Under the pieces are notes generated by a model, which did not search any database, was not told the origin of the DNA, and saw nothing but the letters and a program-made list of their open reading frames with translations. A stretch of DNA of 64,000 nucleotides from Verrucomicrobiota bacterium (GTDB lineage Bacteria > Verrucomicrobiota > Verrucomicrobiia > Limisphaerales > SIBE01): positions 8,247 to 72,246 of the forward strand of contig JAIPJX010000002.1 in assembly GCA_021733945.1 (NCBI GenBank). The letters are read 5' to 3'. Shown here in pieces: positions 641 through 56,677 of this stretch (position 1 is its first letter; each line of letters starts with the position of its first letter). A program made the translations under genes and the position numbers.

Positions 641-2122
641 GTGACGCGTGGGTTCCAAACTAAAGTGATCGCCCGGGTGGTTCCCAAAGTCAGGATGCAA
701 TTCAAATTCTGGATCTTAGTCAGCCTTCTGCTCGTCGGCGCACCCGCCGCATCGGCGGATGTCATGCCGCTGATGCGCGTGCTCACCCTCCAGGACTACA
801 ACACGCGGGTGGTGGTCGTCGGCATTCTCCTTCTGGGCATTGCCGCCGGGGTGATTGGATCGTTCATGCTTCTGCGCAAACGCGCCCTTGTCGGGGACGC
901 GGTGAGTCACGCCACGCTTCCCGGTTTGTGCGCCGCATTTATGATCATGGCTTCCATGGGCGGAGATGGGAAATGGCTTCCGGGCCTCCTGCTCGGCGCG
1001 CTCGTGACCGGAGGTCTGGGGATTCTGATGGTGCTCTGGATCCGGAGTCAGACCAAACTGAAGGAAGACACCGCTCTGGGGATCGTACTCAGTGTGTTTT
1101 TCGGGATGGGTGTTTCGTTGCTTGGGATCATTCAGAAAATGCGTCAGGGCCACGCCGCGGGTCTCGAGTCCTTCATCTACGGAAAGACGGCCTCCATGCT
1201 GGCCGGGGATGCGATGCTGATCGGAGGCGCGGCTTTGGTGGTCATCACCACGGCCGTTCTGCTGTTCAAGGAGTTTCGTCTGCTTTGCTTCGACGAGGCG
1301 TTTGCCAAATCCCAGGGCTGGCCTGTGCGTGCCTTGGACATCGTCATGATGCTGTTGGTGGTGACCGTGACGGTGATCGGTCTGCAGGCGGTGGGTTTGA
1401 TCCTGATGATCGCACTGCTCGTGATTCCCCCGGCAACGGCACGTTTCTGGACGGAGCATCTGCAGACCCTGGTCTGGCTCTCGGCAATCACCGGCGGGAT
1501 CAGTGGCTTGATCGGGGCCCTCGCCAGCGCCCTGGTTCCGAACCTGCCCGCCGGCGCGGTGATCGTTCTGGTGGCCGCCGCTTTCTTTGTATTCAGCATG
1601 CTCTTTGGATCGCGTCGCGGGGTTGTCATCCGCTTCTTCGAACACTGGAAACTCAGTCGCAAGGTGGGCCGTCAACACCTTCTGCGCGCACTCTACGAAT
1701 GGGTCGAAGAATCGAGTGGCACGGGCCCTGACGAGTTGGCAGCGGAACGAGAGAGCATGGGAATTTCATTCGAATCGCTGCTTCCGGAACGCTCCTGGCA
1801 TCCCAGGCAGCTGCGCCGCTGGCTCCGGGACGCGATGGGTCAGGGGAATATCTATGATGGGTCGGATGGATTGTTCCACCTCACACGCGAAGGCTGGTCG
1901 GAAGCGCGCCGCGTCGTGCGCAATCATCGACTCTGGGAAATCTACCTCATCGAATACGCGGACATCGCGCCCAGCCACGTCGACCGGGATGCCGACATGA
2001 TCGAGCATGTCCTGGGGCGGGCCATGGTGGACGAGTTGGAGGCCCTGCTCCGCACGCGATACCCCCATCTGGCCATGCCGCCCAGCCCACACACCCTGTC
2101 GCTCGCCGGAGGTCGGTCATGA
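641..2122 (+). CDS. ABC-3 family metal transporter permease fused to a C-terminal DtxR/MntR/TroR-like metalloregulator domain
   Basis: The N-terminal ~330 aa are multi-TM and carry the ABC-3 motif VGDAVSHATLPG. The C-terminal ~150 aa align by eye with DtxR: RQHLLRALYEWVEE, then a wHTH-like region, then RNHRLWEIYL...HVDRDADMIEHVL. The start may be GTG 641 or ATG 695. The stop overlaps the next gene by 4 nt. Confidence 0.85.
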   Translation: MTRGFQTKVIARVVPKVRMQFKFWILVSLLLVGAPAASADVMPLMRVLTLQDYNTRVVVVGILLLGIAAGVIGSFMLLRKRALVGDAVSHATLPGLCAAFMIMASMGGDGKWLPGLLLGALVTGGLGILMVLWIRSQTKLKEDTALGIVLSVFFGMGVSLLGIIQKMRQGHAAGLESFIYGKTASMLAGDAMLIGGAALVVITTAVLLFKEFRLLCFDEAFAKSQGWPVRALDIVMMLLVVTVTVIGLQAVGLILMIALLVIPPATARFWTEHLQTLVWLSAITGGISGLIGALASALVPNLPAGAVIVLVAAAFFVFSMLFGSRRGVVIRFFEHWKLSRKVGRQHLLRALYEWVEESSGTGPDELAAERESMGISFESLLPERSWHPRQLRRWLRDAMGQGNIYDGSDGLFHLTREGWSEARRVVRNHRLWEIYLIEYADIAPSHVDRDADMIEHVLGRAMVDELEALLRTRYPHLAMPPSPHTLSLAGGRS

Positions 2123-3018
2123 ATTGGACGATGCTCGACACCTGGATCGTGATCGCCGGAGTGCTGAGCGCCTGCTCCTGCTCGGTCCTCGGAAACTTTC
2201 TCCTCCTGCGCCGCATGAGCATGATGGGGGACGCCATCAGCCATGCTGTGCTTCCGGGGCTGGCCGTTGGCTTTCTGCTGACAGGCAGCCGCTCCAGTCT
2301 CGTGATGTTCCTCGGGGCCGCGGTGGTCGGGGTGCTCACCGCCGTGTTTACCCAGTGGATCAACCGGTTTGGCAAGGTGGACGAGGGGGCTTCCATGGGG
2401 GTGGTTTTTACAGCCCTCTTCGCAGTGGGTCTCGTGCTGATTGTTCAGGCGGCTGATGCGGTGGATCTGGACCCGGGCTGTGTGCTCTACGGTGCGATCG
2501 AAACCGTGCCGCTCGACACAGTTCAGCTCGGTTCCCTGAGCATCCCGCGCGCCGTGCTGACCCTGGCCATCGTATTCGCGATCAACCTGGGTGTCATCAT
2601 CGTGTTCTTCAAGGAATTCAAGATTTGCGCCTTCGACGAGGAATTGGCCACCACGCTCGGCATTCGTTCGGCCTGGATGCACTACCTGCTCATGACACTC
2701 GTTGCCGTGACCACCGTCGCTTCGTTCGAAAGCGTCGGAAGCATCCTCGTCATTGCCATGCTCATTGTTCCGCCCGCCACAGCCTATCTTCTGACAGATC
2801 GTCTCCAATCAATGATCCTGCTGAGCCTCGGATTTGCCACCCTCAGCGCGATTGGCGGGCATTGGTCGGCGATGGCGGTTCCCCCGATCTTCGGGTTCGC
2901 CGACACCAATACCTCCGGAATGATGGCGGTGGTGGCCGGGCTTCTGTTCAGCTTCGCCTTCGTCTTCTCGCCCAGGCAGGGCTTGATCGCGCGATTCCTG
3001 AAACCGAAGACCAACTGA
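2119..3018 (+). CDS. ABC-3 family metal transporter permease (TroD/MntD/ZnuB-like)
   Basis: 299 aa and multi-TM, with motif MGDAISHAVLPG. ATGA overlap with the upstream permease gene. Confidence 0.9.
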   Translation: MNWTMLDTWIVIAGVLSACSCSVLGNFLLLRRMSMMGDAISHAVLPGLAVGFLLTGSRSSLVMFLGAAVVGVLTAVFTQWINRFGKVDEGASMGVVFTALFAVGLVLIVQAADAVDLDPGCVLYGAIETVPLDTVQLGSLSIPRAVLTLAIVFAINLGVIIVFFKEFKICAFDEELATTLGIRSAWMHYLLMTLVAVTTVASFESVGSILVIAMLIVPPATAYLLTDRLQSMILLSLGFATLSAIGGHWSAMAVPPIFGFADTNTSGMMAVVAGLLFSFAFVFSPRQGLIARFLKPKTN

Positions 3019-3049
3019 CCCGGTACCCTGCCGGAAGCCGGCAATGCGC

Positions 3050-3259
3050 TCAGAGCCTTGTGCGGATGCCACACGCCCGAAGCGCGCACCAACCGCGCAG
3101 CGCCTCGAATGCGACAAAGAGCCCGGAAGCCGCGAGGACGATGGCCAGCCAATGGGAAACGGAAGTGCACGCCGCCGCGCCGCCCAGCAGTGCCAGGGCT
3201 CCAATTCCACGCACCAGGCGTCCACGGTTGTCGATGTTGCGGGTAAAGAAGGGTTTCAT
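3050..3259 (-). CDS. DUF2892 (YgaP-like) small membrane protein
   Basis: 69 aa. N-terminal NIDNRGRLVRG and C-terminal FEALRGWCALRACGIRT resemble the DUF2892 pattern (N.g..DR..R..G ... GwCp.ya..Gi.T). Two hydrophobic helices. The ATG overlaps the stop of the upstream regulator (ATGA at 3256-3259). Confidence 0.55.
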   Translation of the reverse strand: MKPFFTRNIDNRGRLVRGIGALALLGGAAACTSVSHWLAIVLAASGLFVAFEALRGWCALRACGIRTRL

Positions 3260-4200
3260 CGTTTTCTTTGAGTTGCAGGTTTGCGCAGTTGATCAAGCAC
3301 CGAGCAGAGGTGATTGAGGTCTTTCATTTCGATCGCACCGATCCTTTCCAAAACGGGCCGATAGGCAGGGGCCGCCCGTCCCCCCACCAGCAGAGTGATC
3401 TCCGGGGGCAGTGCTTCGCGCAGGCGCGTCAGCTCCCCCTCAAGCCGTGGGTCATCTTCCGGATACACCAGGCTTAATGCAACCGCCTTGGCTCGGTTTT
3501 GCCGGGCCGCTCCTGCGATCTCGGCCGCCGGGAGACTGACTCCCAGATAAGTCACATGCCAGCCGAGATTTGCCGCCGCCGCTCCCGCCAAAAGGGCTCC
3601 CAATTCGTGGATCTGCCCCGCAGGCGTGGTAATGACAATCACGGGCGAGTCCTGGGTTCCGGCAAACGGCTTGGAGGCGTGGCCGAGAAAGACGCGGATG
3701 ATCGCACTCGCAAAATGTTCGTGCGCGGCCGTGATGGTGCCCTCGCGCCAAAGCTCGCCAATCGTTTGAACCAGCGGGGCGATGACCCGCTGCAACAAAC
3801 CCTGGGAACCAAGCTCTGTCGACGCTTCCCGGAGTGTGTCATCCAGCAATCGGGCATCAAGGGACCTCACTGCCAGGAGGCATGTCTCGAGGTGCTTCGG
3901 AGCGCCCGGCTCGGCTGTTTTAAGAGGGGCCCTGGCACCGTTCGTTGCGGGGACCTCGTTGGCGAGCCGGCGCAATTTCTGCGTGGGCAGTTGAGCGACG
4001 TGGCCGATGCTGTGGCCCATCTGAGTGATCTGCCGCAACAGGCTCAATCGTTCAATCTGCTCTTCGGAATACAGGCGGCGGTTGGTTCCGGTCCGGTCGG
4101 GGGCTACAGCCTGATAACGTTTCTCCCAGACCCGGATGACGTGCAGGCTGAGACCGGTCCGTCTTGAAACGACTTTGATGGCGTGGTGAGCGTCTGACAT
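3256..4200 (-). CDS. carH: MerR-family, B12-binding light-responsive transcriptional regulator (CarH/LitR type)
   Basis: N-terminal MerR HTH (IKVVSRRTGLSLHVIRVWEKRY...RTGTNRRLYSEEQIERL). W-x9-EH motif (LWREGTITAAHEH). B12-binding Rossmann segment VIVITTPAGQIHELGALLAG with the lower-ligand His motif HxxG. Divergent from carotenoid genes. Confidence 0.8.
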   Translation of the reverse strand: MSDAHHAIKVVSRRTGLSLHVIRVWEKRYQAVAPDRTGTNRRLYSEEQIERLSLLRQITQMGHSIGHVAQLPTQKLRRLANEVPATNGARAPLKTAEPGAPKHLETCLLAVRSLDARLLDDTLREASTELGSQGLLQRVIAPLVQTIGELWREGTITAAHEHFASAIIRVFLGHASKPFAGTQDSPVIVITTPAGQIHELGALLAGAAAANLGWHVTYLGVSLPAAEIAGAARQNRAKAVALSLVYPEDDPRLEGELTRLREALPPEITLLVGGRAAPAYRPVLERIGAIEMKDLNHLCSVLDQLRKPATQRKR

Positions 4201-4440
4201 AAATTAGACAATCTTGCGACATAAAGTTCTTCCTTGGCAAGTGTTGATTTCGAAAAAAACGCCTGCAACGGTTTTATCCCGGCAAACACCGGTTTCCAGG
4301 CGGTCTCGAACCGGGGGCAGCCAAAAATATCTTTAATAGACAAATGCTTGACATTGAAACCTGTTTTAGACAATGTATGGTGGATTAGTTCGAAAACAAC
4401 GCTGCCAGCTGCAAATCAATTCCGCCCAAACCCAGAACCT
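4201..4440. promoter_or_regulatory. Divergent carH / carotenoid-operon control region with four T(A/T)GACA elements and a candidate -35
   Basis: TAGACAAT at 4205-4212, TAGACAA at 4337-4343, TTGACA at 4348-4353 and TAGACAAT at 4367-4374. ACA/TGT triplets fall at 4340, 4351, 4362 and 4374, roughly in 11-bp phase. The region is AT-richer than its surroundings. Confidence 0.4.
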
Positions 4441-6036
4441 ATGCAAAAAGAAATTATCGTGATCGGTGCCGGCCCGGGTGGGCTTGCCTCAGCCATTCTC
4501 CTGGCTTCGGCTGGGGTGAAGGTCAAAATCGTGGAACGTCTCCCGGTGATCGGTGGTCGGACCTCGAGTATTGAAGCCGACGGATTCAAGTTCGATTTGG
4601 GTCCGACCTTCTTCCTGTATCCCAGAGTGCTGGATGAGATTTTTGGTGCGGCTGGCACGAGTCTTCGGGAGGAGGTTGAGATGGTTCGTCTGGATCCGCA
4701 GTACCGGATTCAGTTCGGGGCTGGCGGCAAGCTCGACTGCACGCCGAACATCGAGTCGATGGAGCAGCAGATTGCCTCCTTGTGCCCCGCCGACGCCCCG
4801 GGATTCCGTCGGTTTCTCGCCGAAAACAGAACCAAACTTGCCGCGATGGAACCCTGTCTCGAATCCCCGTTCCTTGGGTGGCGGGATCTTGTGCAGATGC
4901 GGTTGCTCAAGATGCTGCCCATGCTTCGACCCCATCAATCGGTCGATGGTTACCTCAAACGGTTCTTCAAGGACGAACGGGTGCGCCTGGCATTCTGTTT
5001 TCAGTCAAAGTATCTCGGCATGTCGCCGTTCCGATGCCCGAGCCTGTTCAGTATCCTCAGTTTCCTCGAATACGAATATGGCGTTTTCCACCCCATCGGC
5101 GGGTGCGCCGCGGTGACCCGGGCGATGGAGCGTGTGGCGCGGAGGCTTGGGGTTGAGATCTGCCTGAATGAACCCGTGGAAGAGATCCTGTTCGCGGGAC
5201 GCAGGGCTGTGGGGGTTCGAACCGGCGCGGATACCCACCGGGCCGACGCTGTCGTCGTGAACGCCGACTTCGCCCGGGCGATGGAACGGCTGGTGCCCGA
5301 TCAACTTCGGAGGCGGTGGACCAATCGAAAGCTCGCGGGGAAGAAATACTCCTGTTCGACGTTCATGATGTACCTCGGCGTCGAGGGAACGTTCGACCTG
5401 CCGCATCACACGATTCACATCGCCAAGGACTACGCGCAGAACCTTGAGGATATTGAGAGCCGCCATGTTCTGAGCGAGGACCCCAGTTTCTACGTGCAGA
5501 ACGCCTGCGTGACCGATCCGACGCTCGCGCCCAAGGGCAAGAGTGCGCTTTATGTGCTTGCCCCCGTTTCCCATCAACATCCGAACGTGGACTGGAGCAG
5601 GGACAAGGCCCGGTTCCGGAACCTCTCGTTCGACAAGATCGCCCAGGCGGGTTACGGCGATCTCGAGAAACGCGTTCAATACGAGCGGGTGATCACTCCG
5701 GCCGATTGGGATCATCGCTACGAAATCTATCGGGGTGCCACCTTCAATCTGGCGCACACGCTGGATCAGATGTTGCACCTCCGCCCGCACAATCGCTTCG
5801 AAGACCTCGATGGAATGTACCTCGTTGGAGGCGGAACACATCCCGGAAGCGGGCTGCCCGTCATTTTCGAAAGCGCCCGGATCAGTTCCCGGCTTCTGCT
5901 TGAAGACCTCGGAATACCCGCCGGGCATATTGACTCGGCTCGGACCTCATCCGGTTCAAAGCTCCCCGATGAAAAGCCGGGACTGCTCAATGCCATGGCC
6001 GGAATGTTTGGCCTGAACTCCAAATCATCGTTGTGA
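4441..6036 (+). CDS. Phytoene/diapophytoene desaturase family FAD oxidoreductase (CrtI/CrtN/CrtP family), copy 1
   Basis: The ATG at 4441 is followed directly by the dinucleotide-binding motif IIVIGAGPGGLASAILLA...VERLPVIGGR. The C-terminal signature is YLVGGGTHPGSGLPVIFESA. The ORF-track start at 4234 is an unsupported upstream extension. Confidence 0.85.
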   Translation: MQKEIIVIGAGPGGLASAILLASAGVKVKIVERLPVIGGRTSSIEADGFKFDLGPTFFLYPRVLDEIFGAAGTSLREEVEMVRLDPQYRIQFGAGGKLDCTPNIESMEQQIASLCPADAPGFRRFLAENRTKLAAMEPCLESPFLGWRDLVQMRLLKMLPMLRPHQSVDGYLKRFFKDERVRLAFCFQSKYLGMSPFRCPSLFSILSFLEYEYGVFHPIGGCAAVTRAMERVARRLGVEICLNEPVEEILFAGRRAVGVRTGADTHRADAVVVNADFARAMERLVPDQLRRRWTNRKLAGKKYSCSTFMMYLGVEGTFDLPHHTIHIAKDYAQNLEDIESRHVLSEDPSFYVQNACVTDPTLAPKGKSALYVLAPVSHQHPNVDWSRDKARFRNLSFDKIAQAGYGDLEKRVQYERVITPADWDHRYEIYRGATFNLAHTLDQMLHLRPHNRFEDLDGMYLVGGGTHPGSGLPVIFESARISSRLLLEDLGIPAGHIDSARTSSGSKLPDEKPGLLNAMAGMFGLNSKSSL

Positions 6037-7553
6037 ACCTGGCCACCGGAGAGTTGAGTCCGCAGGAACTGCCCCATTTGCCTGCCTTGCATCCCGATCT
6101 AATTCCATCGGCCATGCGGGCGGCACGGGCCGCTCAGCGAAACTGGGCTCTCAAACCGGTTGCCCGAAGGCTGGTTCCGGTAGCCGAATTGCGGCGTTTG
6201 ATCTCAGAACATGCGATGGCCCTGGCCGCCGCCTCGGCCGGTTCGCGGCAACGCCCGGTTGCAGAATCCCTGACCGCCGAAGTAATGCCTCTGGCTGAGG
6301 CGTGCCGTTTTCTCCTCCGAAACGCCGGTGCGCTGCTCAAGACCCGGTGTCTGGGATCCCGTTCCCTTCCGCTCTGGCTCTGGGGAGTGCGTCGGGAGAT
6401 CCGTCGTGATGCCCTGGGTGTCATCCTGATCATTGGCCCCGGCAACTATCCCCTGTTTCTACCGGGGGTGCAGTTGCTCCAGGCACTGGTCGCTGGAAAT
6501 TCCGTGATGCTGAAGCCCGGGGTCGGAGGTGCCCCTGCAGCCGCCGCACTCATCAACCTCATCGTTCGTGCCGGATTTGATCCGGGTCTGGTCTGGCTCC
6601 TGCCCGAATCTCCGGAAGCCGCTCGCTGCGCCATCGCAGCGGGTCCGGACAAGGTCCTCTTTACTGGAAGCGCCGGGACCGGAGAGAAAATCCTTCAGCA
6701 GCTCGCACCCGCCCTCATACCGGCGACTCTCGAACTGAGCGGATCGGATGCTGTGGTTGTCCGGGCCGATGCCGATCTCGATCTGGTCACAAAGGCCTTG
6801 GTGTTCGGGTTCCGGTTGAACGGAGGGGCGACCTGCATGGCTCCCAAACGCGTCTTTGTCGATCGCAGGATCGCAACCGAGCTTGAGGGACGTCTGGCGA
6901 AAGCACTGCCGTCCGAAAATTCCTGTCGGCTCTCGGGTGAACTTGCGACCCGGCTTCGACCCTGCCTGGATCGGGCGCTGGAGTCCGGAATGCATTTCAT
7001 CGCAGGATCCCACCACCCCGAAGAAGGACTCATGGGGCCGGTGGTGCTGGGGGGGGCAACCCCGGACGCTCCCATCCTGCAGGAGGATCTTTTCGCCCCG
7101 ATCGTGGTTCTGGTCACCGTAGCCGACGACGCCGAGGCCGTGATGCGCGCCAATGAGTGTCGATTTGCCCTGGGTGCCAGTATTTTCAGTCGCAATCAGG
7201 CAGCGGCCCGCACGATGGCGGGCCGATTAAACGCGGGGGTTGTCACGATCAACGACCTGATCGTGCCGACGGCCGACGCGTGCGCCCCGTTTGGAGGTCG
7301 AAAACGGAGCGGCTTCGGAGTGACCCGTGGAGCGGAAGGTCTTCTCGAACTCACAGCACCCAAGGTCATCACTCTCACCCGCGGAAAAATGCGGCCCGCT
7401 TTTGATCAGCCACATCCGGATGACGCAGCGCTCTTCGAGGCTTACCTCGGGCTCGCGCATGGACGTGGACTGACCGGACGCATCCGGTCCCTGGTCAATG
7501 TCATGAAATCGCTCACGAATCGCAGTAAACCCAAGAATCAATCCGGATTATGA
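6033..7553 (+). CDS. Aldehyde dehydrogenase family protein (candidate carotenoid-aldehyde dehydrogenase)
   Basis: ALDH-type motifs are present: catalytic Glu context ELSGSDAVVV, catalytic Cys context NGGATCMAPKRVFV, and FAPIVVLV...ALGASIFS. The GTG start overlaps the upstream stop (GTGA). Confidence 0.85.
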   Translation: MNLATGELSPQELPHLPALHPDLIPSAMRAARAAQRNWALKPVARRLVPVAELRRLISEHAMALAAASAGSRQRPVAESLTAEVMPLAEACRFLLRNAGALLKTRCLGSRSLPLWLWGVRREIRRDALGVILIIGPGNYPLFLPGVQLLQALVAGNSVMLKPGVGGAPAAAALINLIVRAGFDPGLVWLLPESPEAARCAIAAGPDKVLFTGSAGTGEKILQQLAPALIPATLELSGSDAVVVRADADLDLVTKALVFGFRLNGGATCMAPKRVFVDRRIATELEGRLAKALPSENSCRLSGELATRLRPCLDRALESGMHFIAGSHHPEEGLMGPVVLGGATPDAPILQEDLFAPIVVLVTVADDAEAVMRANECRFALGASIFSRNQAAARTMAGRLNAGVVTINDLIVPTADACAPFGGRKRSGFGVTRGAEGLLELTAPKVITLTRGKMRPAFDQPHPDDAALFEAYLGLAHGRGLTGRIRSLVNVMKSLTNRSKPKNQSGL

Positions 7554-9130
7554 AAAACTCCACGCAAGAACGTATTGGCGTGATTGGCGGCGGGCTCGGC
7601 GGACTGGCTGCAGCCTGTACCCTGGCCGCTCGCGGTTACCAAGTTGTCCTCCTCGAACGCAACGAATGGCTCGGTGGAAAGGCCGCGCAGCTCGAAGGGG
7701 ATGGTTTTCGCTTCGACATGGGACCGACCATCGTCACCATTCCCTCCGTGTTGAGGCGCATCTTTCAGGAAGCGGGGCGCCGGATGGAGGATTATCTCGA
7801 CATGGTGCGGCTGGATCCGCAATGGCGTTGTTTCTTTGACGATGGTTCCGTTCTCAACCTGATGCAGGACCCGGAGACGATGGCGTCCACGCTCGAGGCA
7901 TTCGCGCCGGGCACGAATTCGGGCCGGCGTTATCAGGATTTTATGGCGTACAGCAGGCGCTTGAACGACATCTCCCAGCGTCATTTTTTCTACAAACCCA
8001 TTGGCGGTCTGAGGGACATGTTTGATTTGAAGACAAGCTTTGATCCCAAGATCCTTGGCGATGTGCTCGCGATGCGCATGGGACGCAGCGTTGCCGGCAC
8101 GGTCCGATCCTTCACCCCGGACTCGCGCGTGGCGCAGATGATGGATCACTTCACGCAGTATGTCGGTTCCTCTCCGTACGGATCTCCCGCCGTGCTCTGC
8201 GGGATCGCACACATGCAGACCGACGAAGGCATCTGGTATCCGATGGGCGGCACACGAGCCGTGCCTGTCGCGTTGGAAAAACTGGCCCGGGAACTTGGAG
8301 TCGAGATTCATACCGGGGTACAGGTAACAAGGATTCAGACGCAGGGCGATCGTGTCACCGGAGTGATCACAAACCGGGGAACCGAGATTCCCCTCGGGGC
8401 AGTGGTTTCCAATTGCGATTCCGTGCGAACGCATCGCGAACTGATCAGCGGTCCCGTGGGAACGAAGTTCGAACGTCGGCGCCACTACGAAGCCGCCTGT
8501 TCCGGCGTTGTCCTCTACCTTGGGTTAAAGAAACGATACGATCACCTGGCTCACCACGACTTCGTTTTCAGCCGCGATCCCCACGAGGAGTTCGAGGCGA
8601 TCTACAAGAGAGGGGAACCCGCTCCGGATCCAACCTGTTATCTGGCGGCGACCACGTGCAGCGAAAAGGCAACGGCCCCCGAAGGGGGGGAAGCCCTCTA
8701 CGTGCTTGTGCATACCCCCTACCTGCGGCCCCACCACGACTGGAAAAGGATGTTGCCCGCCTATCGCGACGTAATCATTGAGAAGCTCAAGACGACCGGC
8801 CAGATGCCGGATCTCGAGGAGCGAATCGTATTCGAGCGCACCCTGACACCTCAGGATATCCACGACCGTTACCAGGTGTTGGACGGGGCCATCTACGGGC
8901 TCGCTAGCCACGGGACTTTTCTCGGAGCGTTTAAGCCAGGCAACCGATCACCGGATCTCCGGGGTCTTTATCTCGCGGGTGGAGCCGCGCATCCCGGACC
9001 CGGCATGCCGATGGTGCTCATGAGCGGATGGATCGCAGCGGACACGCTCGATCAGGACGGTGTGGTGGAAGCTGGAGAGCCGGCACCCTTCGATTCGGAA
9101 AGGGATCGTTCCGAGCTGACTCCTGCCTGA
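7550..9130 (+). CDS. Phytoene/diapophytoene desaturase family FAD oxidoreductase (CrtI/CrtN/CrtP family), copy 2
   Basis: N-terminal IGVIGGGLGGLAAACTLAARGYQVVLLERNEWLGGK. C-terminal YLAGGAAHPGPGMPMVLMSG. ATGA overlap with the ALDH gene. Confidence 0.9.
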   Translation: MKNSTQERIGVIGGGLGGLAAACTLAARGYQVVLLERNEWLGGKAAQLEGDGFRFDMGPTIVTIPSVLRRIFQEAGRRMEDYLDMVRLDPQWRCFFDDGSVLNLMQDPETMASTLEAFAPGTNSGRRYQDFMAYSRRLNDISQRHFFYKPIGGLRDMFDLKTSFDPKILGDVLAMRMGRSVAGTVRSFTPDSRVAQMMDHFTQYVGSSPYGSPAVLCGIAHMQTDEGIWYPMGGTRAVPVALEKLARELGVEIHTGVQVTRIQTQGDRVTGVITNRGTEIPLGAVVSNCDSVRTHRELISGPVGTKFERRRHYEAACSGVVLYLGLKKRYDHLAHHDFVFSRDPHEEFEAIYKRGEPAPDPTCYLAATTCSEKATAPEGGEALYVLVHTPYLRPHHDWKRMLPAYRDVIIEKLKTTGQMPDLEERIVFERTLTPQDIHDRYQVLDGAIYGLASHGTFLGAFKPGNRSPDLRGLYLAGGAAHPGPGMPMVLMSGWIAADTLDQDGVVEAGEPAPFDSERDRSELTPA

Positions 9131-9152
9131 AGACCGCTCCGGAGGCCAAACC

Positions 9153-10061
9153 ATGAACCCGATCCTGTCCAGTCTACCACTTCCCGATCTGTCTGATCCC
9201 GGCCGGGCCGGCAGCCTGGAATTGCGCTCCGATACATGCGCGGGAGCACCACCGGCATCCCGCCCATCAGAGCGTCAGCCGTCGAAACAGCCGGACATTT
9301 CACCGCTGCTCCTTCGGTGGTTCACCGCGTACGGTCGCCGCTACATTCGTCGTCACTTTCATTCGCTTCGTGTCTCGCAATCCGGGATTCTGTCGGACGC
9401 GGAAGGGGTTCCGCTTGTGATCTACACCAACCACGCCTCCTGGTGGGATCCCCTGATCGGGCTCGTTCTGAAACAGGCCCTGCTTCCAGACCGCAGACTG
9501 TTCAGCCCGATCGACGCCGCCATGCTTGAGCGCTACCGCCTGTTCGCAAAGCTCGGTTTCTTCGGAGTTCAGCAACAGACCAGGCGGGGTGCGGTTCAGT
9601 TCCTGCGTGCGAGCGAAGCCATTCTTTCCGAGCCGGATTCCCTGCTCGCACTGACACCTCAGGGGAGATTTGCCGATGCCCGGGAACGACCCGTGCGATT
9701 TCAATCGGGCATCGGACATTTGGCCGCACGAACGACTCGGGCGGTCTTCGTGCCCATGGCGACCGAATTTGTGTTTTGGGAGGAACGCCTGCCCGAAGTC
9801 CTGGTTCGGTTCGGTGAACCGGTGGAGGTGCGGCGGGAACACGCCGCGGCTTTTGATTCGAAATATTGGACCGCTCTGTTCGAACAGAAACTCGAAACCG
9901 CCCAGGACGGCCTGTCCCTGCAGGCGCAACGGCGCGATCCAAAAGAGTTCATCACGTGCCTCCGGGGAGAAGCGGGTCAGGGAGGTGTCTACGATCTGTG
10001 GCGGGCCACAAAGGCGCGGTTCTTCGGTGCCGCTTTCCGGAAGGAGCACGGAAACAAATGA
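9153..10061 (+). CDS. Lysophospholipid (PlsC-type) acyltransferase family protein
   Basis: HX4D acyltransferase motif (YTNHASWWDPL), followed by LTPQGRF and a typical PlsC-like layout. Sits in the carotenoid operon. Confidence 0.75.
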   Translation: MNPILSSLPLPDLSDPGRAGSLELRSDTCAGAPPASRPSERQPSKQPDISPLLLRWFTAYGRRYIRRHFHSLRVSQSGILSDAEGVPLVIYTNHASWWDPLIGLVLKQALLPDRRLFSPIDAAMLERYRLFAKLGFFGVQQQTRRGAVQFLRASEAILSEPDSLLALTPQGRFADARERPVRFQSGIGHLAARTTRAVFVPMATEFVFWEERLPEVLVRFGEPVEVRREHAAAFDSKYWTALFEQKLETAQDGLSLQAQRRDPKEFITCLRGEAGQGGVYDLWRATKARFFGAAFRKEHGNK

Positions 10062-11212
10062 ATCTCGACACGCTCTCGCTGATTGCCCTGGTGTTGGCCG
10101 CCGTTCCCTGCGCTCTTTTTTTCATCAACCTCCTCGTGTACCGCAGGGTCCTCAAGGGCCCTTCGCGTTCCGACACCGCGGTCTCGGTGCTGATTCCCGC
10201 ACGCAACGAGGAACAAAACCTCGCCGCCACTCTCGAAGCCGTGCTTGCGAATCGGGAAGCCAGGTTCGAGGTGATTGTCCTGGACGATTCATCAACCGAT
10301 GGAACCGCGGAGATCCTGAAAACCTTTGCCCGGCGTGATCAGCGTGTCCGTGGGGAATCCGCCCCGTCGCTTCCGAAGGGATGGTGCGGCAAACAACACG
10401 CCTGCCACGTGCTCGCCGGACTGGCGCGCCACCCATTGCTCCTGTTTATCGACGCGGACGTGCGGCTGGCTCCGGATGCTTTGTCCCGGATGGTTCATTT
10501 CATGGAGCGGAATCCCGCTGCCCTGGCCAGTGGTGTGCCCAGGCAGAAGCTCGGGACCTTCAGTGAACGATTGCTGCTGCCATTGATTCATTCCGTCCTG
10601 CTTGGTTTTCTCCCCATGCACGCCATGCGCTGGACCCGGCGGGCTTCCTTGTCCGCAGGTTGCGGTCAGCTCTTCATCGCTCGACGCGACGCATACAAAC
10701 GCTGCGGAGGTCACGCCGAACTGCGTGCCTCCCTGCACGATGGCATTCGCCTGCCGCGCGTTTTCCGGAAGGCCGGATTCGCGACCGATCTTTTTGACGC
10801 CACCGATCTGGCCTCGTGCCGGATGTACCGAACCAACGGGGAAACCTGGCGCGGTTTGGGCAAGAATGCCACGGAAGGGTTGGGTGCTCCCGGAAGGATC
10901 GTGCCGATGACGGCGCTCCTTGCGGGTGGCCAGGTGCTCCCGTTCATCCTCTGCGGCTGTGCCCCAATCCTGTCTTCCAAGGCCCTCGTGCTGGCCCTGA
11001 GTGCCGCTGCGTTTGCGATCCTGCCCAGGCTGTTTGCGGTTCTTCGGTTCAGGCAACCCCTGGGCAGCGCTCTCCTGCATCCCCTTGGAGTTTTGGCCCT
11101 GCTCGCGATTCAGTGGAGTGCGCTCGTCCGGCAACTCCTTGGCAGACCTTCCCAATGGAAGGGCCGTTCCTATGGTCCCTCGGAGAGGATTCAACCGGCA
11201 GAAGCATTATGA
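10058..11212 (+). CDS. Family 2 glycosyltransferase (CrtQ-like position in the carotenoid operon)
   Basis: ATG at 10058 (ATGA overlap). An N-terminal TM segment is followed by VSVLIPARNEEQNLAATLEAVL...EVIVLDDSSTDGT (GT-A/GT2), with C-terminal TM helices. The ORF-track start at 9866 is an upstream extension. Confidence 0.85.
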   Translation: MNLDTLSLIALVLAAVPCALFFINLLVYRRVLKGPSRSDTAVSVLIPARNEEQNLAATLEAVLANREARFEVIVLDDSSTDGTAEILKTFARRDQRVRGESAPSLPKGWCGKQHACHVLAGLARHPLLLFIDADVRLAPDALSRMVHFMERNPAALASGVPRQKLGTFSERLLLPLIHSVLLGFLPMHAMRWTRRASLSAGCGQLFIARRDAYKRCGGHAELRASLHDGIRLPRVFRKAGFATDLFDATDLASCRMYRTNGETWRGLGKNATEGLGAPGRIVPMTALLAGGQVLPFILCGCAPILSSKALVLALSAAAFAILPRLFAVLRFRQPLGSALLHPLGVLALLAIQWSALVRQLLGRPSQWKGRSYGPSERIQPAEAL

Positions 11213-11769
11213 CACCCATGCAACTCTCATTACTACCGCTGATCGTTTTCCTGTTGAGCGGAATGCTCGTTCGGTTCAATGAGGCCGCTCCTGCGCTGGA
11301 TCAAGCGCCGCCAAACGTGGAACTGCACGATCAGTACAACGTTGCTCACATCCTTTCCTTTCCAGCCCGCCGTGTCACCCTGCTCACGATTGCCGACCGA
11401 AAAGGTTCCAAACAGGTGGCGGGCTGGATCGAGGCCATCAAACCGGGTTACGGGGAGCGGATCGATATTCGGGGCCTCGCTGATTGTGGCGCCGTACCCG
11501 CATTCCTCCGGGGCTGGATCCGGAAGAAATTCCAGGAAACCCTCAAATATCCTGTGATGATGGATTGGACGGGTGAAATCTGTTCGCAGTTCGGATTCAA
11601 ATCGGATCAGGCAAACATCCTTGTGATCGGACCGGATGGCGTCATCCGGGCGCGTGTCTTTGGTGAAGCCAACGCCGTCGCGATTGCGAAGATCACCGAG
11701 GCTCTTGATGAGGCGGTTGCCGCCGCCCCGGGCAACGCCTCGGCGCATTCCCGTTGGGTTAAGAATTGA
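11209..11769 (+). CDS. Secreted or membrane-anchored thioredoxin-fold-like protein lacking a CxxC motif
   Basis: ATG 11209 overlaps the GT2 stop (ATGA). N-terminal hydrophobic signal or anchor LSLLPLIVFLLSGML. The layout is redoxin-like (VELHDQYNVAHILSF..RVTLLTIADRKGSKQV ... ILVIGPDGVIRARVFG), but the CxxC position reads DRKG. Confidence 0.6.
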   Translation: MTPMQLSLLPLIVFLLSGMLVRFNEAAPALDQAPPNVELHDQYNVAHILSFPARRVTLLTIADRKGSKQVAGWIEAIKPGYGERIDIRGLADCGAVPAFLRGWIRKKFQETLKYPVMMDWTGEICSQFGFKSDQANILVIGPDGVIRARVFGEANAVAIAKITEALDEAVAAAPGNASAHSRWVKN

Positions 11770-11985
11770 AAAGAGATCGCGAACCACGCGCTGCCATTGT
11801 GTCGTGTCCGCTGACCCTGCCGGGGGGCATCCGCTCCGAACGGTGTGCCCCGCCAACCAGATAAGGCCGAATGGCATTGGGTTTAAGTCCGCGACCCCGG
11901 ACGATGCAGCCGCTGGCCGAAGGAGGATCGCTGGAATGAAGGCGCTGAGATTGACAGCGTTCAACCCGGCGGGCACGGTTTTTGA

Positions 11986-13347
11986 ATGAGCAATGTCACT
12001 CGGTTCGGCGCGTCGGGGGATGGCCTGACGGATGATACGGAGGGAATTCGGCATGCGGTGGCCAATGGCGATGGGATGCTGCACTTTCCTCCGGGAACCT
12101 ACAGAATCACGGCACCGATCGAGATCGATCTTGCATCGCGCAGTCCGCTGGCAATCGACGGCACAGGCGGCACGGCGCGCATTGTCATGGCCGGCAAGGG
12201 GCCGGCGTTTCGATTGATTGGCACGCACCGAGGCACGGGCGATCCCGGCAGCCGTGAGGGCAATGTGGCGACGCATCAGCGGATGCCGACAGTTCGGAAC
12301 ATCGAGATCGCGGGAGCCCATGAGGAGGCCGACGGCTTTGAGTTGATTCAGACGATGCAGGCGATCTTCGAGGGGGTGATGGTGACGAAGTGTCGGCACG
12401 GCATTCATCTGACCCGGCGCAACCGCAATGTGCTCATCACTCACTGCCACCTGTATGCCAACACGGGCGTGGGGATTTACCTCGATGGCGTGAGTCTGCA
12501 TCAGATCAATCTGAATGGAAATCACATCAGCTACAACCGGCTGGGTGGAATCCGGGTGGAACGTTCCGAAGTCCGCAACCTCCAGATCACCGGCAATGAC
12601 ATCGAGTACAACAATCATCGTGCCCATCAGACCGAGCCCGAACCGACTGCCGAGATCTACATCGACACCACGGCCGAAGGCGCGAGCGTCAACGAGGTGA
12701 CCATCGCTTCGAATACCATCCAGGCCACCCATTCGCCCGGTGGCTGCAACATCCGCATCCTCGAGAAACGGGATGCTTCCCGACCTCCAGGTTTGTTTTC
12801 GATTGCCGGCAACATCATCGGAAGTCAGGAGAACAACGTGCATCTAACCGGGTGTTATGGAATGGCCATCAGCGGCAACTGCATTTATTCGTGCGCGAAT
12901 CGAAATCTGCTGATCGAGGATTCACGCCTGATCAACATCTCGGGAAACACCTTCCGGCGCCACACCCCGGAATCCGGCACGGGCGTGCGTTTTGTGGGGT
13001 GCTCCGACATCGCGTTCACGGGTTGTTCCATTCTGGATGAAACCGAAAGCGGCCAGCCCGGCCTCGCCGGCCTTCTGGAAATCACCGGCTGTGATCGCAT
13101 CAACATCACGGGGTGTCAGTTTCTCAACGGGGCTCCCGCGAGCATCGCATCCGTTAACAGCCGACAGTTGTCCATTACCGGCAACACACTGTGCGACACC
13201 CGCAAAACTCCGGTCGCCCGGCACGCCATTCAGTTCTCCGGCCCCGGGGCCGGACATCTTGTGACAGCCAACACCATCGGTCCCACGACGGGTCAGGCCG
13301 TGACGGGAGAAGCCCGACTCGAAGGCAATCTCGTGTCTGGGAATTGA
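11986..13347 (+). CDS. Right-handed parallel beta-helix repeat protein (pectate-lyase-superfamily / GH28-related N-terminus)
   Basis: N-terminus VTRFGASGDGLTDDTEGIRHAVANGDGMLHFPPGTYRI. Repeated I-x-G/N-N turns are present (NLQITGNDIEYNN, TIASNTIQA, ISGNCIYS, ISGNTF, ITGCQFLN, SITGNTL). Confidence 0.8.
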   Translation: MSNVTRFGASGDGLTDDTEGIRHAVANGDGMLHFPPGTYRITAPIEIDLASRSPLAIDGTGGTARIVMAGKGPAFRLIGTHRGTGDPGSREGNVATHQRMPTVRNIEIAGAHEEADGFELIQTMQAIFEGVMVTKCRHGIHLTRRNRNVLITHCHLYANTGVGIYLDGVSLHQINLNGNHISYNRLGGIRVERSEVRNLQITGNDIEYNNHRAHQTEPEPTAEIYIDTTAEGASVNEVTIASNTIQATHSPGGCNIRILEKRDASRPPGLFSIAGNIIGSQENNVHLTGCYGMAISGNCIYSCANRNLLIEDSRLINISGNTFRRHTPESGTGVRFVGCSDIAFTGCSILDETESGQPGLAGLLEITGCDRINITGCQFLNGAPASIASVNSRQLSITGNTLCDTRKTPVARHAIQFSGPGAGHLVTANTIGPTTGQAVTGEARLEGNLVSGN

Positions 13348-34129: not shown

Positions 34130-35457
34130 GAGTTTCTATTTGAATGGCTGTGATTGACCGCGCTGTTGACAGCCCCGGCGGGGACTGCGGCGGGTTGCCC
34201 CTGGGTTGGCGGTTGGTGGCCGCCCGCGGGCGCCCCTGAAGCGCCCTTGGCTCGAGCACTCGATTTCCGGAGGAATCCGGTCAGGTGCATTCCGAACTGC
34301 ACCAGCAGTCCGACTCCCACAAGGACGCAGGAAAGATAGGGTGTGAGCCAGGCGGGATTCTTCACCACCTGCAGGATCGAGACGGTGTCACCGGGTTCAA
34401 ACCCGCCCTGATAATAGGTTTCGCCACCGTAGCGCAGTGGGTTGTTCATGTAGATCAACACATCGCGTTCGACGTTTTCACCGGGGTCGCTCAGATGGAT
34501 CCGGCTCGAAAAATCCTTTGGAATATCGGTCCCCTTGTACCGCGCATGTGTAAAATCCAGAAGCTTCACCGTGTAGGGCTTGTAATAACGCACCGGCCTC
34601 AGCGCCAGTTCGTAGGTTCGTCCCGCATGCTGGAAGGTTTGTGGTCCGATCAGACTCCCGCCCGCACCGAGCTGCCCCTTCAGGTAGGTGCTCCAGGGGT
34701 GTTTGGTCAACCAGGTGCTGACGGTCCATTCGCCCAGGGCCGTGCCATCGGCGAGCACTTCGACCAGCGCCACCGGCTTGTTTTCGTCGTCCATCTTCGC
34801 CGTGACCGCTTGTTGATCGAAGGGCAGCCGAAGTCCGGTTCCCTGGGTTGCTGTGATTCGGGCTCCCGAAGCCTGGACCATCGGACCGCCGGGCACCGAG
34901 TTTCGGAAGAATTCCTTGACGCGAATTGAGATCGGAAACTCGGGAATATCGATCGTGGCACCCTTGACCAGGGAGCTTTGGGGGACGGCCACCACCTTTT
35001 CCTGATTGGGATCCGTGACGTCAATCACCGCCAGCTCGTTGCCGCGACCGTCTTCGCTGTAATTCTTGGCCTTGCCCTCCTCAATGCGCATGAAGCTTTC
35101 CACCTGATAGACCTCGGTGAGGAACTGGCCCACCAGAAGCAGGATCAAACCAATGTGCGTCAGGAAAATTCCGGATTTTTTGGCAGTGAACTTGAACCGT
35201 TTGATGTGGGCGGCGATCAGATTCGCCAGCAGCACCCCTCCCAGCAGGTAACCTCCCGGCCACACCGGGATTTTCCAGTTGGACCCCTCGGGCGTCCAGA
35301 AAACGAAGAGACTCCGGAAATACTGTTCCTGCGTCACATAAAGCCCCAGTTCGACCTGGGCGAGCGTGCCGAAGAAAACCAGAATGATCGCCGCAAACAG
35401 ACAGGCAACCGTCAGTCGGAGCGAGGTCAGAAATTGGATCAGGCCGTTAAGCATCAT
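34126..35457 (-). CDS. resB: System II cytochrome c biogenesis protein ResB/Ccs1
   Basis: N-terminus LTSLRLTVACLFAAIILVFFGTLAQ, a large soluble middle region and a C-terminal TM helix. Adjacent to and overlapping ccsA. Confidence 0.85.
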   Translation of the reverse strand: MMLNGLIQFLTSLRLTVACLFAAIILVFFGTLAQVELGLYVTQEQYFRSLFVFWTPEGSNWKIPVWPGGYLLGGVLLANLIAAHIKRFKFTAKKSGIFLTHIGLILLLVGQFLTEVYQVESFMRIEEGKAKNYSEDGRGNELAVIDVTDPNQEKVVAVPQSSLVKGATIDIPEFPISIRVKEFFRNSVPGGPMVQASGARITATQGTGLRLPFDQQAVTAKMDDENKPVALVEVLADGTALGEWTVSTWLTKHPWSTYLKGQLGAGGSLIGPQTFQHAGRTYELALRPVRYYKPYTVKLLDFTHARYKGTDIPKDFSSRIHLSDPGENVERDVLIYMNNPLRYGGETYYQGGFEPGDTVSILQVVKNPAWLTPYLSCVLVGVGLLVQFGMHLTGFLRKSSARAKGASGAPAGGHQPPTQGQPAAVPAGAVNSAVNHSHSNRNS

Positions 35458-36523
35458 TGGGAAGTTGGATCGATTGCAGGAACTTCATGAAGCCGGGCTG
35501 CTCGCGTTCGATCAACGCTTCGCTGCCGAGGAGTTTGAAGAACCAGGTTTTGCCCATGTGCGGAACAAGAGCCACGAGGATGCGTTTGGAGGCTGACCGA
35601 TCGCCGCCGCTGGAATTCGCCATGTCGACCAGCGTTGATTCCGCTCCGCCCACAACAATCGATTGGGTGATGCTCGCGAGCTCACCCGCACTCACCGGCG
35701 TGAGGCCCAGCTGCGTCCGCCAGCGGTTGACGTTCATCAACAATCCGCCGACATCCCCCGGGAAGGCGCTGACGGTCGCTTCTGCGGACCCGAGATCACC
35801 CCCGTCCACGCCATATTTTGCAATGAGCATGGAACTGGGTGTCTGGGCCACCCAACTGGAGGGGGGCTCCCATTGAGGCGCTCCGGAACCTCCCGCAGGA
35901 GGCGGCGGCATAACCGGGGGAACCGTCGAGGGAGCTCCGGCCAATGCCGTGGCTTCTCCGCTCGGAAAGACGAAAGACTCGATGAATTCGACGAAACCCG
36001 CCTTCTGAGCCGCCACCAATGATTCGGCCCCGATCATCTTGAAAAACCAGTTTGAGTCGCCCGACCGGGCAATCGCCGCCACAATCCGGGTGGGCTCGTT
36101 CTTGGCTGCGTCCACGCCCTCCAAGTCGACCAGAATCCCCGGAACCCCATCAATCACCACTTTCTGTTGCAGACCCTCCAGACCCTCGGCGGTCACCGGC
36201 GTCAGGCCAATCTGCCCTCGCCACCGGTTGATATTGTCGAGATCCGAACCTGAAGCTCCGCTGAGCGGAATGATCGAGACATCAGCGGTCTCGCCATTCG
36301 CACCCGTTACCTGGAAACTGCCGACGCGCATGCCGCTGGCAGGCTGCTCCTTCCAACCTGCGGGGATTTTCCATCGTGCAGGGCTCGCCTGAGCCTGGGC
36401 TGGCTCCTTGGACACGTTGTAAACCCGGACGTCTTCCTTCTGGCATCCGGACATCGCCATTGCCAAAACCGGGAGGAACCCCAACCACCTGTGACCCTGA
36501 ACTGACAACGATGCGAATTTCAT
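35447..36523 (-). CDS. Putative lipoprotein made of two tandem copies of an uncharacterised domain
   Basis: Signal with a lipobox-like sequence (LPVLAMAMSGC). Two ~140-aa repeats each contain W..P..W, NxNRWRxQxGLTPV and WFFK(M/L)xG.E.L....Q.GF..F(I/L)xS. The 3' end overlaps the resB start by 11 nt. Confidence 0.7.
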   Translation of the reverse strand: MKFASLSVQGHRWLGFLPVLAMAMSGCQKEDVRVYNVSKEPAQAQASPARWKIPAGWKEQPASGMRVGSFQVTGANGETADVSIIPLSGASGSDLDNINRWRGQIGLTPVTAEGLEGLQQKVVIDGVPGILVDLEGVDAAKNEPTRIVAAIARSGDSNWFFKMIGAESLVAAQKAGFVEFIESFVFPSGEATALAGAPSTVPPVMPPPPAGGSGAPQWEPPSSWVAQTPSSMLIAKYGVDGGDLGSAEATVSAFPGDVGGLLMNVNRWRTQLGLTPVSAGELASITQSIVVGGAESTLVDMANSSGGDRSASKRILVALVPHMGKTWFFKLLGSEALIEREQPGFMKFLQSIQLPNDA

Positions 36524-36605
36524 TAATAAACTTTCTACTCTCGGTGCCAGCTCATCGCAAGCTATGGCTTGTCTTCCTGCAAACAATATTTGTTTCAGGA
36601 TGTGT

Positions 36606-36638
36606 CTAAAAAGTGTGAACCGACCTCGGAAGGCTCAC
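36606..36638 (-). terminator. Candidate intrinsic terminator downstream of rho
   Basis: On the minus strand, GUGAGCC-N10-GGUUCAC (7-bp stem including one G-U pair) is followed by ACUUUUUAG. It lies about 165 nt after the rho stop. Confidence 0.3.
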
Positions 36639-40650: not shown

Positions 40651-40705
40651 GGTTCCGATAAAGTCTTGAAGTTGAGGCGCACCATCCAAATCGTCAACCG
40701 TGAAA

Positions 40706-56467: not shown

Positions 56468-56576
56468 AGAAATCCTATGTTTATGCAGGGGTAAGACGCG
56501 GGTAATTCGACGCCCCGATTCCCTCCGTTCCTCCTCAGGAAAGATCGCTCTGGGAGAGCGGCGCGTCAAATTCTTT

Positions 56577-56621
56577 GAGCCTGTCCCTTTGTTGTTTTCA
56601 ATGCGATAAAGGGACAGGCTC
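56577..56621. repeat. Perfect 14-bp inverted repeat of the GGGACAGGCT-family motif (REP-like hairpin)
   Basis: GAGCCTGTCCCTTT (56577-56590) and AAAGGGACAGGCTC (56608-56621) are separated by a 17-nt loop. The hairpin lies about 110-155 nt upstream of RAYT-like gene 2. Confidence 0.7.
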
Positions 56622-56677
56622 TTTGTTCTTGTTGCCGGGCTCTTGCGCTCCGGAGATTTGAATAGCATGATCGCCGG

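Follow-up and report, generated by a model that had tools for sequence, protein, structure and literature searches.

A predicted CarH-type regulator facing a putative C30 carotenoid acyl-glycoside operon in a member of the Verrucomicrobiota

Regulators of the CarH type are set apart from the B12-independent CarA by an intact Wx9EH motif and an intact B12-binding motif, and their experimentally defined operators are tandem 11-bp repeats of the form nnnnTnnACAn that overlap the -35 or -10 element of a promoter (PMC9304148). Among C30 carotenoid pathways the pairing of an oxidase with an aldehyde dehydrogenase to give a carotenoic acid is typical (PMC9907078, PMC10448405); in the Verrucomicrobia CrtN and CrtP have been reported together with Sqs or HpnD and a squalene route (PMC9907078), and the verrucomicrobial Rubritalea make 2-acyl-xylosyl diapolycopenedioates (PMC3967232). 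In Methylobacterium extorquens AM1, which is without a CrtO homologue, deletion and complementation show that a glycosyltransferase (GT) and the adjacent lysophospholipid acyltransferase (LPLAT), both encoded next to crtP, lead to 4-[2-O-acyl-glucosyl]-4,4'-diapolycopenedioic acid (PMC10448405). The literature searches made for this analysis turned up no account of CarH/LitR proteins as regulators in Verrucomicrobia or Planctomycetes. Here we describe a carH-like gene and the six-gene operon divergent from it, both lying within a 64-kb stretch of the genome of a Verrucomicrobiota bacterium (contig JAIPJX010000002.1 of assembly GCA_021733945.1, positions 8,247 to 72,246), the whole of which is referred to below as the window. 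We think it reasonably probable that the locus is a photoprotection module, in which a B12- and light-dependent switch of the CarH type governs the synthesis of a C30 acyl-glycoside carotenoid.

The regulator and its proposed operators

The carH gene and the first gene of the operon, des1, are separated by an intergenic region of 240 bp (Table 1). The operon genes are chained by 4-nt overlaps of start and stop codons (GTGA at 6033, and ATGA at 7550, 10058 and 11209), with a 22-nt gap between des2 and the acyltransferase gene as the sole junction without one. All seven open reading frames (ORFs) named in an initial annotation, which was made from the sequence alone, were found where it had placed them by ORF listing and translation, and the overlaps it had reported are present at all four junctions. 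Its overall proposal, a CarH-type regulator divergent from a translationally coupled acyl-glycosyl carotenoic-acid operon in a Planctomycetes–Verrucomicrobia–Chlamydiae (PVC) bacterium, is supported by the evidence given below. The independent Logan assembly SRR12088351 has identical gene calls except for the last gene, begun there at an ATG at 11218 rather than at 11209; the start at 11209 gives the 4-nt overlap that is retained in relatives. Locus comparisons used 80 related loci, several metagenome-assembled genomes having supplied two separate carH loci each, and the same arrangement (carH divergent from des1, the aldehyde dehydrogenase gene, des2, and the acyltransferase, GT2 and last genes) is seen in approximately 23 of them.

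Table 1. Coordinates of the features of the carH locus in the window, with predicted functions and candidate promoter elements.
Feature	Coordinates	Strand	Description
DUF2892 / YgaP-like_TM gene	3050-3259	-	Two-transmembrane-segment (TM) membrane protein, 69 aa; motif FEALRGWCALRACG; missed in the initial annotation
carH	3256-4200	-	CarH/LitR-type regulator, 314 aa; MerR winged helix-turn-helix (wHTH), four-helix bundle with Wx9EH, Rossmann B12-binding domain
Candidate carH promoter and proximal operator	4205-4240	-	-35 TTGCCA 4240-4235; TGTCGC 4221-4216; TGTCTA 4210-4205
Candidate operon promoter and distal operator	4337-4381	+	TAGACA 4337-4342; TTGACA 4348-4353; TAGACA 4367-4372
des1	4441-6036	+	FAD-dependent carotenoid desaturase of the CrtI/CrtN half; proposed CrtN-like backbone desaturase
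Aldehyde dehydrogenase gene	6033-7553	+	GTG start overlapping the des1 stop; proposed to convert a carotenoid aldehyde to a carotenoic acid
des2	7550-9130	+	Amine-oxidase-family enzyme of the CrtP/CrtD side; proposed CrtP-type terminal-methyl oxidase
Acyltransferase gene	9153-10061	+	PlsC/lysophospholipid-acyltransferase family; proposed sugar O-acyltransferase
GT2 gene	10058-11212	+	Membrane glycosyltransferase; start overlapping the acyltransferase stop (ATGA); proposed to form the glycosyl ester of the carotenoic acid
Last operon gene	11209-11769	+	Predicted secreted Cys-less TlpA/ResA-like thioredoxin-fold protein, 186 aa

The regulator has Pfam matches to MerR_1 (PF13411, E 7e-15), B12-binding_2 (8e-9) and B12-binding (2e-11). 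Its closest solved structure is Thermus thermophilus CarH (5c8d/3whp; E 2.5e-26 over residues 6-308), and the CarH equivalog NF052513 is by far its best full-length NCBIfam model. These matches and the mapping of residues bear out the MerR helix-turn-helix, the Wx9EH motif and the B12 lower-ligand motif that the initial annotation had read in this protein, including its expectation that the C-terminal domain would match B12-binding models, and the peptides LWREGTITAAHEH and VIVITTPAGQIHELGALLAG are present in the product. Conservation was counted among 120 homologues, each at least 70% identical, with Thermus numbering mapped through the alignment. Between 117 and 120 of these retain the recognition helix RVWEKRY and the residues W151, E161, H162, H198, G201 and GG273-274; the helix itself is invariant, with K for the first R of RR in RxWERRY, and the Wx9EH residues W151, E161 and H162 (Thermus W131, E141 and H142) are retained in 119-120. 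Where the classic B12 motif is D/ExHxxG-x41-SxT/V-x22-27-GG with a lower axial His, a regular expression finds QIH198ELG-x41-SLV-x27-GG in the regulator, with His198 at the lower-ligand position (117 of 120). Both glycines of the dimer–dimer interface are also kept (G181 and G213, for Thermus G160 and G192), and the family has an invariant additional His at position 160 (HEH). Because the defining Wx9EH and B12 motifs are intact, we assign the regulator by its sequence to the CarH family, with notable variation at the ligand of the light state.

The region upstream of carH (260-400 nt) was aligned across 73-76 related loci, and the promoter elements named here are read from consensus and conservation in the sequence only. 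The TnnACA repeats of the window fit the published CarH repeat in sequence; three distal boxes and one and a half proximal boxes survive. The proximal repeats have an 11-bp spacing and end 4 nt before the carH ATG, which implies a very short, nearly absent leader, and the layout CTTGCxA-N13/14-TGTCnn-N5-TGTCTA-N5/6-ATG is present in nearly all of 76 homologue loci; we infer that these boxes cover the candidate -10 and the point at which transcription of a carH mRNA with almost no leader would start. At the distal site the boxes are spaced by 11 and 19 bp, with TTGACA at 4348-4353 a candidate -35; from the sequence and a promoter scan, the candidate -10 of the operon is CAATGT (4371-4376), or else TATGGT (4376-4381) paired with TTGAAA (4354-4359). 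The distal consensus gAGACAAAnnnTTGACA...TTAGACATATT, with an embedded TTGACA, is found in 53 of the 73 loci, where it reads on the operon strand as gAGACA-N5-TTGACA-(8-bp shift)-nnnACA-N5-TAGACA-N5-nnnACA. We take this TTGACA as the candidate -35 in the relatives too; 17 bp downstream of it, within a box, is a -10 candidate resembling CATATT. A histogram of box-to-box spacings over 76 loci peaks at 11, 19, 30 and 41 bp, and TGTCTA-N5-TGTCTA with no more than two mismatches occurs five times in the window (0.9 expected), three of these within 4194-4353. Of the computational evidence for repression of both divergent units by the regulator, we regard the conserved operators as the strongest, and their layout, with that of the promoters, is conserved enough for binding and reporter experiments to be designed from it.

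An extra 11-bp-spaced TnnACA pair (TTCACA-N5-TAGACA, - strand) is present at 36603-36619, approximately 20 nt upstream of ORF 35447-36586 (-), the first gene of an operon for cytochrome c biogenesis of the ResB/CcsA-like kind. This pair could be due to chance, the expectation being 0.9 sites of the sort in each window.

The arrangement suggests a simple scheme of control. In the dark the regulator would hold adenosylcobalamin (AdoCbl), with His198 as ligand and Trp151, Glu161 and His162 as a cap, and the AdoCbl-loaded protein would oligomerise and bind the 11-bp TnnACA direct repeats. These overlap the candidate -35 and -10 of the operon (4337-4381) as well as the candidate -10 and start of carH (4205-4240), and we therefore propose that both directions are repressed. 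Light would cleave the Co–C bond and take the oligomer off the DNA, and both transcription units would be turned on.

The gene that follows carH encodes a small membrane protein, and its ATG overlaps the carH stop codon (ATGA). The Logan assembly includes it among its gene calls, and a DUF2892 homologue begins 0-24 nt from the end of carH in at least 48 of the 80 related loci. The protein carries a GWCxLRACG motif and scores 24.8 bits with Pfam PF11127, for which the gathering score is 25.3. To our knowledge, a coupled membrane protein of this kind has no counterpart in the described CarH systems. An SRPBCC/Polyketide_cyc gene is nearby in 42 loci, often directly after the DUF2892 gene; the window has no SRPBCC gene.

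Several features weigh against a switch that works by light in the manner of Thermus CarH. Thermus His132, the upper ligand in the light state, is replaced by Arg152 in 117 of the 120 homologues; in Thermus this residue is reported to be critical for light-driven disassembly of the tetramer (PMC10442372; bioRxiv 2025.08.13.669063), and the H132A variant is largely unable to disassemble (PMC10442372). Gln196 takes the place of Thermus Glu175, the D/E of D/ExHxxG, in all 120 homologues, and the Arg176–Asp201 pair, the Thermus dimer salt bridge, is absent, with Ile and Ser in the regulator family. The regulator scores 122.3 bits with the CarH equivalog model against a cutoff of 400. The distal and proximal sites of the window each include one degenerate box, and its -10 candidates are weak. 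The substitutions, the sub-threshold score and the conserved, translationally coupled membrane protein could all be accommodated by a regulator that binds these operators and is not a light switch, being instead a sensor of B12 availability or redox state, a B12-independent protein like CarA, or one dependent on a partner such as the DUF2892 protein. Set against this are the invariance of the Wx9EH cap that discriminates CarH from CarA, and the conservation of both interface glycines, of SxV and GG in the B12 motif and of its lower-ligand His. The His after the Trp, moreover, is described only for "many" CarH homologues and is not stated to be universal (PMC9304148), and the UvdE and TspO genes of related neighbourhoods fit a light regulon. 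We consider a regulator of this other kind rather unlikely, and continue with a B12-dependent light switch as the preferred reading.

The carotenoid operon and its probable product

Both desaturases belong to the carotenoid desaturase family, as the initial annotation had proposed: des1 and des2 match crtI_fam (NCBIfam) with 542 and 412 bits and Pfam Amino_oxidase, and are 33% identical to each other. Against sequences of the Protein Data Bank (PDB), des1 matches CrtI 4dgk with 287 bits and CrtD 4rep with 167 bits, the corresponding scores of des2 being 244 and 240 bits; des2 also matches CrtD models with 306 and 261 bits. A neighbour-joining (NJ) tree with 200 bootstraps was made from the window proteins, Azospirillum proteins and CrtI, CrtN, CrtP and CrtD references, drawn from annotated plasmids and PDB alignments (Staphylococcus xylosus crtOPQMN, Pantoea and Thermus CrtI, and Nonlabens CrtD 4rep). 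It separates CrtI, CrtN and the des1 clade from CrtD, CrtP and the des2 clade with 100% bootstrap; a comparison of this kind had been put forward as a check in the initial annotation. Each has its own clade with Azospirillum proteins (60% and 68% identity, respectively), and orthology to staphylococcal CrtN and CrtP is not upheld by the tree. The aldehyde dehydrogenase noted earlier is confirmed (PF00171, Aldedh, 280 bits), and its gene is coupled by overlaps to both des1 and des2.

The acyltransferase of the window scores 22.1-22.7 bits with PF01553, which is 0.3-0.9 under the gathering score of 23, and 12 of 13 members of its family match the model (best E 5e-8). NHxxxxD and TPQxRF motifs are invariant in the family, and the protein is 45% identical to an Azospirillum 'lysophospholipid acyltransferase family protein' (PGAP annotation); a profile of the family gave only chance-level matches among PDB sequences (ribonucleotide reductase, E 0.05 or worse). 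A staphylococcal CrtO (PF18927) type was ruled out in favour of the LPLAT/PlsC type by PF01553 and the HX4D motif. The acyltransferase that the initial annotation had placed in a staphyloxanthin-type set thus stands as an acyltransferase and loses its likeness to CrtO. The GT2 glycosyltransferase is as first annotated (PF00535, Glycos_transf_2, 92 bits); it scores 119 bits with HpnB and 103 bits with CruG, both under their cutoffs, and is 57% identical to the GT of an Azospirillum cassette described below.

No Pfam domain was found in the product of the last gene or in 99 homologues. The alignment has IADRKG at the CxxC site and no conserved Cys, and the AlphaFold model (pLDDT 85) has a Foldseek match to ResA (E 4e-8, TM-score 0.73 on the target). 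The 'unknown secreted protein' of the initial annotation remains secreted and gains a fold, the model identifying it as a Cys-less thioredoxin fold of the ResA/TlpA periplasmic type. The same gene ends the operon in three other loci (L081-L083).

We propose that the C30 backbone is supplied from elsewhere, most likely as squalene made by Sqs or HpnD, and that des1 would turn it into a diapolycopene-type polyene. The ends would be oxidised to a carotenoic acid by des2 and the aldehyde dehydrogenase, the GT2 would esterify a sugar to it and the PlsC-type acyltransferase would then add a fatty acid; an accessory role may fall to the Cys-less thioredoxin-fold protein, which is exported. In this phylum the precursor is probably squalene, by way of Sqs or HpnD, rather than the product of CrtM. 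No backbone synthase was found beyond the window ends (including 6.7 kb upstream), nor was crtM or sqs found in relatives where 1-3 kb separate carH from des1, the genes in these gaps being fasciclin, sigma-70-type and SDR genes.

The substrate of the operon is likely to be C30. This probable chemistry is well supported by context, and the argument is one from context because neither des1 nor des2 is orthologous to its staphylococcal counterpart (CrtN and CrtP, respectively). The evidence that counts against it begins with the lack of any SQS_PSY-family gene (CrtM, HpnCDE or Sqs) among the long ORFs scanned with Pfam across the 64-kb window, where the initial annotation had likewise seen no diapophytoene or squalene synthase and had placed the precursor step elsewhere. 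In the tree, the position of des1 relative to CrtI (C40) and staphylococcal CrtN has 50% bootstrap, and that of des2 relative to CrtP and CrtD has 39%, des2 not being sister to Staphylococcus CrtP. The JGI source annotation names the des1 family 'phytoene desaturase', and an LPLAT and GT pair is present in the C40 Thermus cluster as well. A joint des1 and des2 profile search recovered only des1 relatives, again named 'phytoene desaturase', and is uninformative on C30 versus C40.

With a C40 backbone, des1 would be a CrtI-type phytoene desaturase and the later enzymes would decorate a C40 or a cleaved carotenoid. The source annotation would suit such a pathway, as would the identity of des1 to Pantoea and Thermus CrtI (34-36%), which are as near to it as Staphylococcus CrtN (31%), its weak grouping with CrtI, and the LPLAT and GT pair, which serves a thermozeaxanthin-type cluster on Thermus pTT27. 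We nevertheless regard it as improbable: crtE, crtB and cyclase genes were not found in the operon or among the scanned window ORFs, an oxidase and aldehyde dehydrogenase leading to a carotenoic acid are a hallmark of C30 pathways, a 64% identical paralogue of des1 clusters with CrtP and CrtO, and the known verrucomicrobial pigments are C30. A C30 substrate is retained in what follows.

The paralogue belongs to a second type of verrucomicrobial carotenoid cluster, which is located beside a carH paralogue at 2018-9744 of locus L038 and likewise in L001, L020, L045, L055, L057 and L061. This type encodes the des1 paralogue (64% identity), an aldehyde dehydrogenase, a CrtP orthologue, a GT2 and a PF18927 CrtO, and the L038 CrtP groups with S. 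xylosus CrtP with 100% bootstrap. The presence of CrtP and CrtO beside a des1 paralogue favours a C30 substrate for the des1 family.

The cassette of the Azospirillum brasilense chromid, plasmid p4 (L086, NZ_CP032343.1, approximately 23.4-30.5 kb) consists of aldH divergent from crtI-crtI-LPLAT-GT-DUF2141, with no CarH nearby. Gene by gene the window operon is 45-68% identical to it (49% for the aldehyde dehydrogenase), and this likeness suggests horizontal transfer between Alphaproteobacteria and Verrucomicrobiota.

Related neighbourhoods and other genes of the window

A secreted fasciclin (FAS1) gene faces carH in approximately 45 of the 80 loci (for example L004, L016, L017 and L026). In many cases genes for a sigma-70-type factor and an SDR come next, and sometimes then a crt operon; L017 has all of these. 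The window lacks fasciclin, sigma-70-family and SDR genes here, and its arrangement is a pared-down form of this layout. The prevalence of fasciclin over des1 at this position, and the many carH homologues without a crt gene within 10 kb, would be expected if the adjacency were incidental, with a regulator confined to its own gene or to targets elsewhere and a constitutive carotenoid operon. This is highly improbable given that the distal operator of the window, with its TTGACA, is 90 nt from des1 on the upstream side, that loci with des1 and loci with fasciclin as first divergent gene have it in the same position, and that crt genes often come after an intervening fasciclin gene on the same strand (L016, L017).

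UvdE is encoded in 13 loci and TspO in 12, CIA30-like genes recur likewise (12-14 loci), and SRPBCC genes are also recurrent nearby. At 10534-12587 of L081 the operon runs on, with overlapping starts, into genes for UvdE (UV damage endonuclease), TspO and a CIA30-like protein. Such recurrent neighbours fit a regulon responding to light or photo-oxidative stress.

Rfam and tRNA scans of the window gave no matches, and there is hence no cobalamin riboswitch in it by the Rfam scan. No convincing terminator was found after 11769 (nine sites in a terminator scan, with 9.8 expected). An ORF at 11233-12843 (-; 536 aa) was deemed spurious, having no Pfam family and overlapping both the last operon gene and a beta-helix gene at 11986-13347 (+).

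Three other genes of the window have uncommon domain compositions or lengths. The 736 aa product of 38479-40689 (-) joins a low-molecular-weight phosphotyrosine phosphatase, an RpiB/LacAB isomerase and a serine hydroxymethyltransferase, an unusual triple fusion if real. That of 641-2122 (+) is an ABC-3 (Mn/Zn-type) permease whose C-terminus is a metal-binding domain of the DtxR type (Fe_dep_repr_C); directly upstream of the window (L084) are genes for ZnuA and for a separate repressor that is DtxR-like. Finally, 55493-56668 (-; 391 aa) has an IS200-like Y1 transposase domain at residues 83-142 and is far longer than a typical IS200 transposase.

Comparison with described systems

The regulator resembles Thermus CarH (5c8d, 3whp) and Bacillus megaterium CarH/LitR in the RxWE(R/K)RY helix of its MerR wHTH, in the Wx9EH cap, in the lower-ligand His of xHxxG-x41-SxV-x27-GG, in its linkage to carotenoid genes, and in the tandem 11-bp TnnACA direct repeats that overlap candidate promoter elements. 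At approximately 30% identity, it differs from these described regulators by Arg for Thermus His132, the extra His160, Gln for Glu175 and the missing Arg176–Asp201 pair. It departs from them too in that its presumed target operon is C30-type rather than C40, in the translational coupling of carH to the gene for a DUF2892 membrane protein, and in its operators, where the boxes are grouped 2 + (2-3), the phase shifts by 8 bp and a two-box autoregulatory site stands apart.

As a tentative suggestion, which we put forward with considerable doubt, the CarH proteins of this verrucomicrobial clade may be B12 photoreceptors with a mechanism of their own and a WR...HEH and QxH signature, without His132 and the Arg–Asp dimer pair and with a co-translated DUF2892 partner, and the terminal Cys-less thioredoxin-fold protein may be a periplasmic carotenoid handler that delivers a glycolipid pigment to the outer membrane. 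The light state of this clade might be stabilised differently, with His160 as upper ligand or with no bis-His state, and its regulator might couple to the membrane partner. The locus would extend B12-based light control of carotenogenesis to the Verrucomicrobiota and to a C30-type pathway, and natural CarH variants without His132, the centre of the Thermus photoactivation mechanism, should be of use in photobiology and in building optogenetic tools from CarH. The locus also draws attention to two conserved proteins, the DUF2892 protein encoded after carH and the thioredoxin-fold protein without Cys at the end of the operon. Current understanding is not overturned by it.

The enzymes are, by the published description, most like those of M. 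extorquens AM1/PA1 (CrtN, CrtP META1p3665, GT META1p3663 and LPLAT META1p3664), which share adjacent CrtP-type oxidase, LPLAT and GT2 genes, a proposed acyl-glycosyl 4,4'-diapolycopenedioate product and unlinked precursor genes. The window differs from Methylobacterium and Azospirillum in having its aldehyde dehydrogenase gene inside the operon and a CarH-type regulator attached, and from Azospirillum in that its operon ends in the thioredoxin-fold gene and that of Azospirillum in a small exported DUF2141 gene. Staphylococcus crtOPQMN and the squalene route of Planctopirus limnophila have in common with it the desaturase, oxidase and aldehyde dehydrogenase, the GT2 ester and the acylation; unlike them, it has no linked crtM or hpnCDE and its acyltransferase is not a PF18927 CrtO. 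Its des1 and des2 share only 31-32% identity with CrtN and CrtP of S. xylosus and do not form sister clades with them, and it is the L038 cluster that holds the true CrtP/CrtO-type counterpart of the staphylococcal system. The parts of the locus are all of known kinds, a CarH-type switch and an alphaproteobacterial-type C30 acyl-glycoside cassette, and what is new is a clear conserved operator together with three small variations, namely Arg in place of His132, a DUF2892 protein as partner of the regulator and a thioredoxin-fold protein that lacks Cys.

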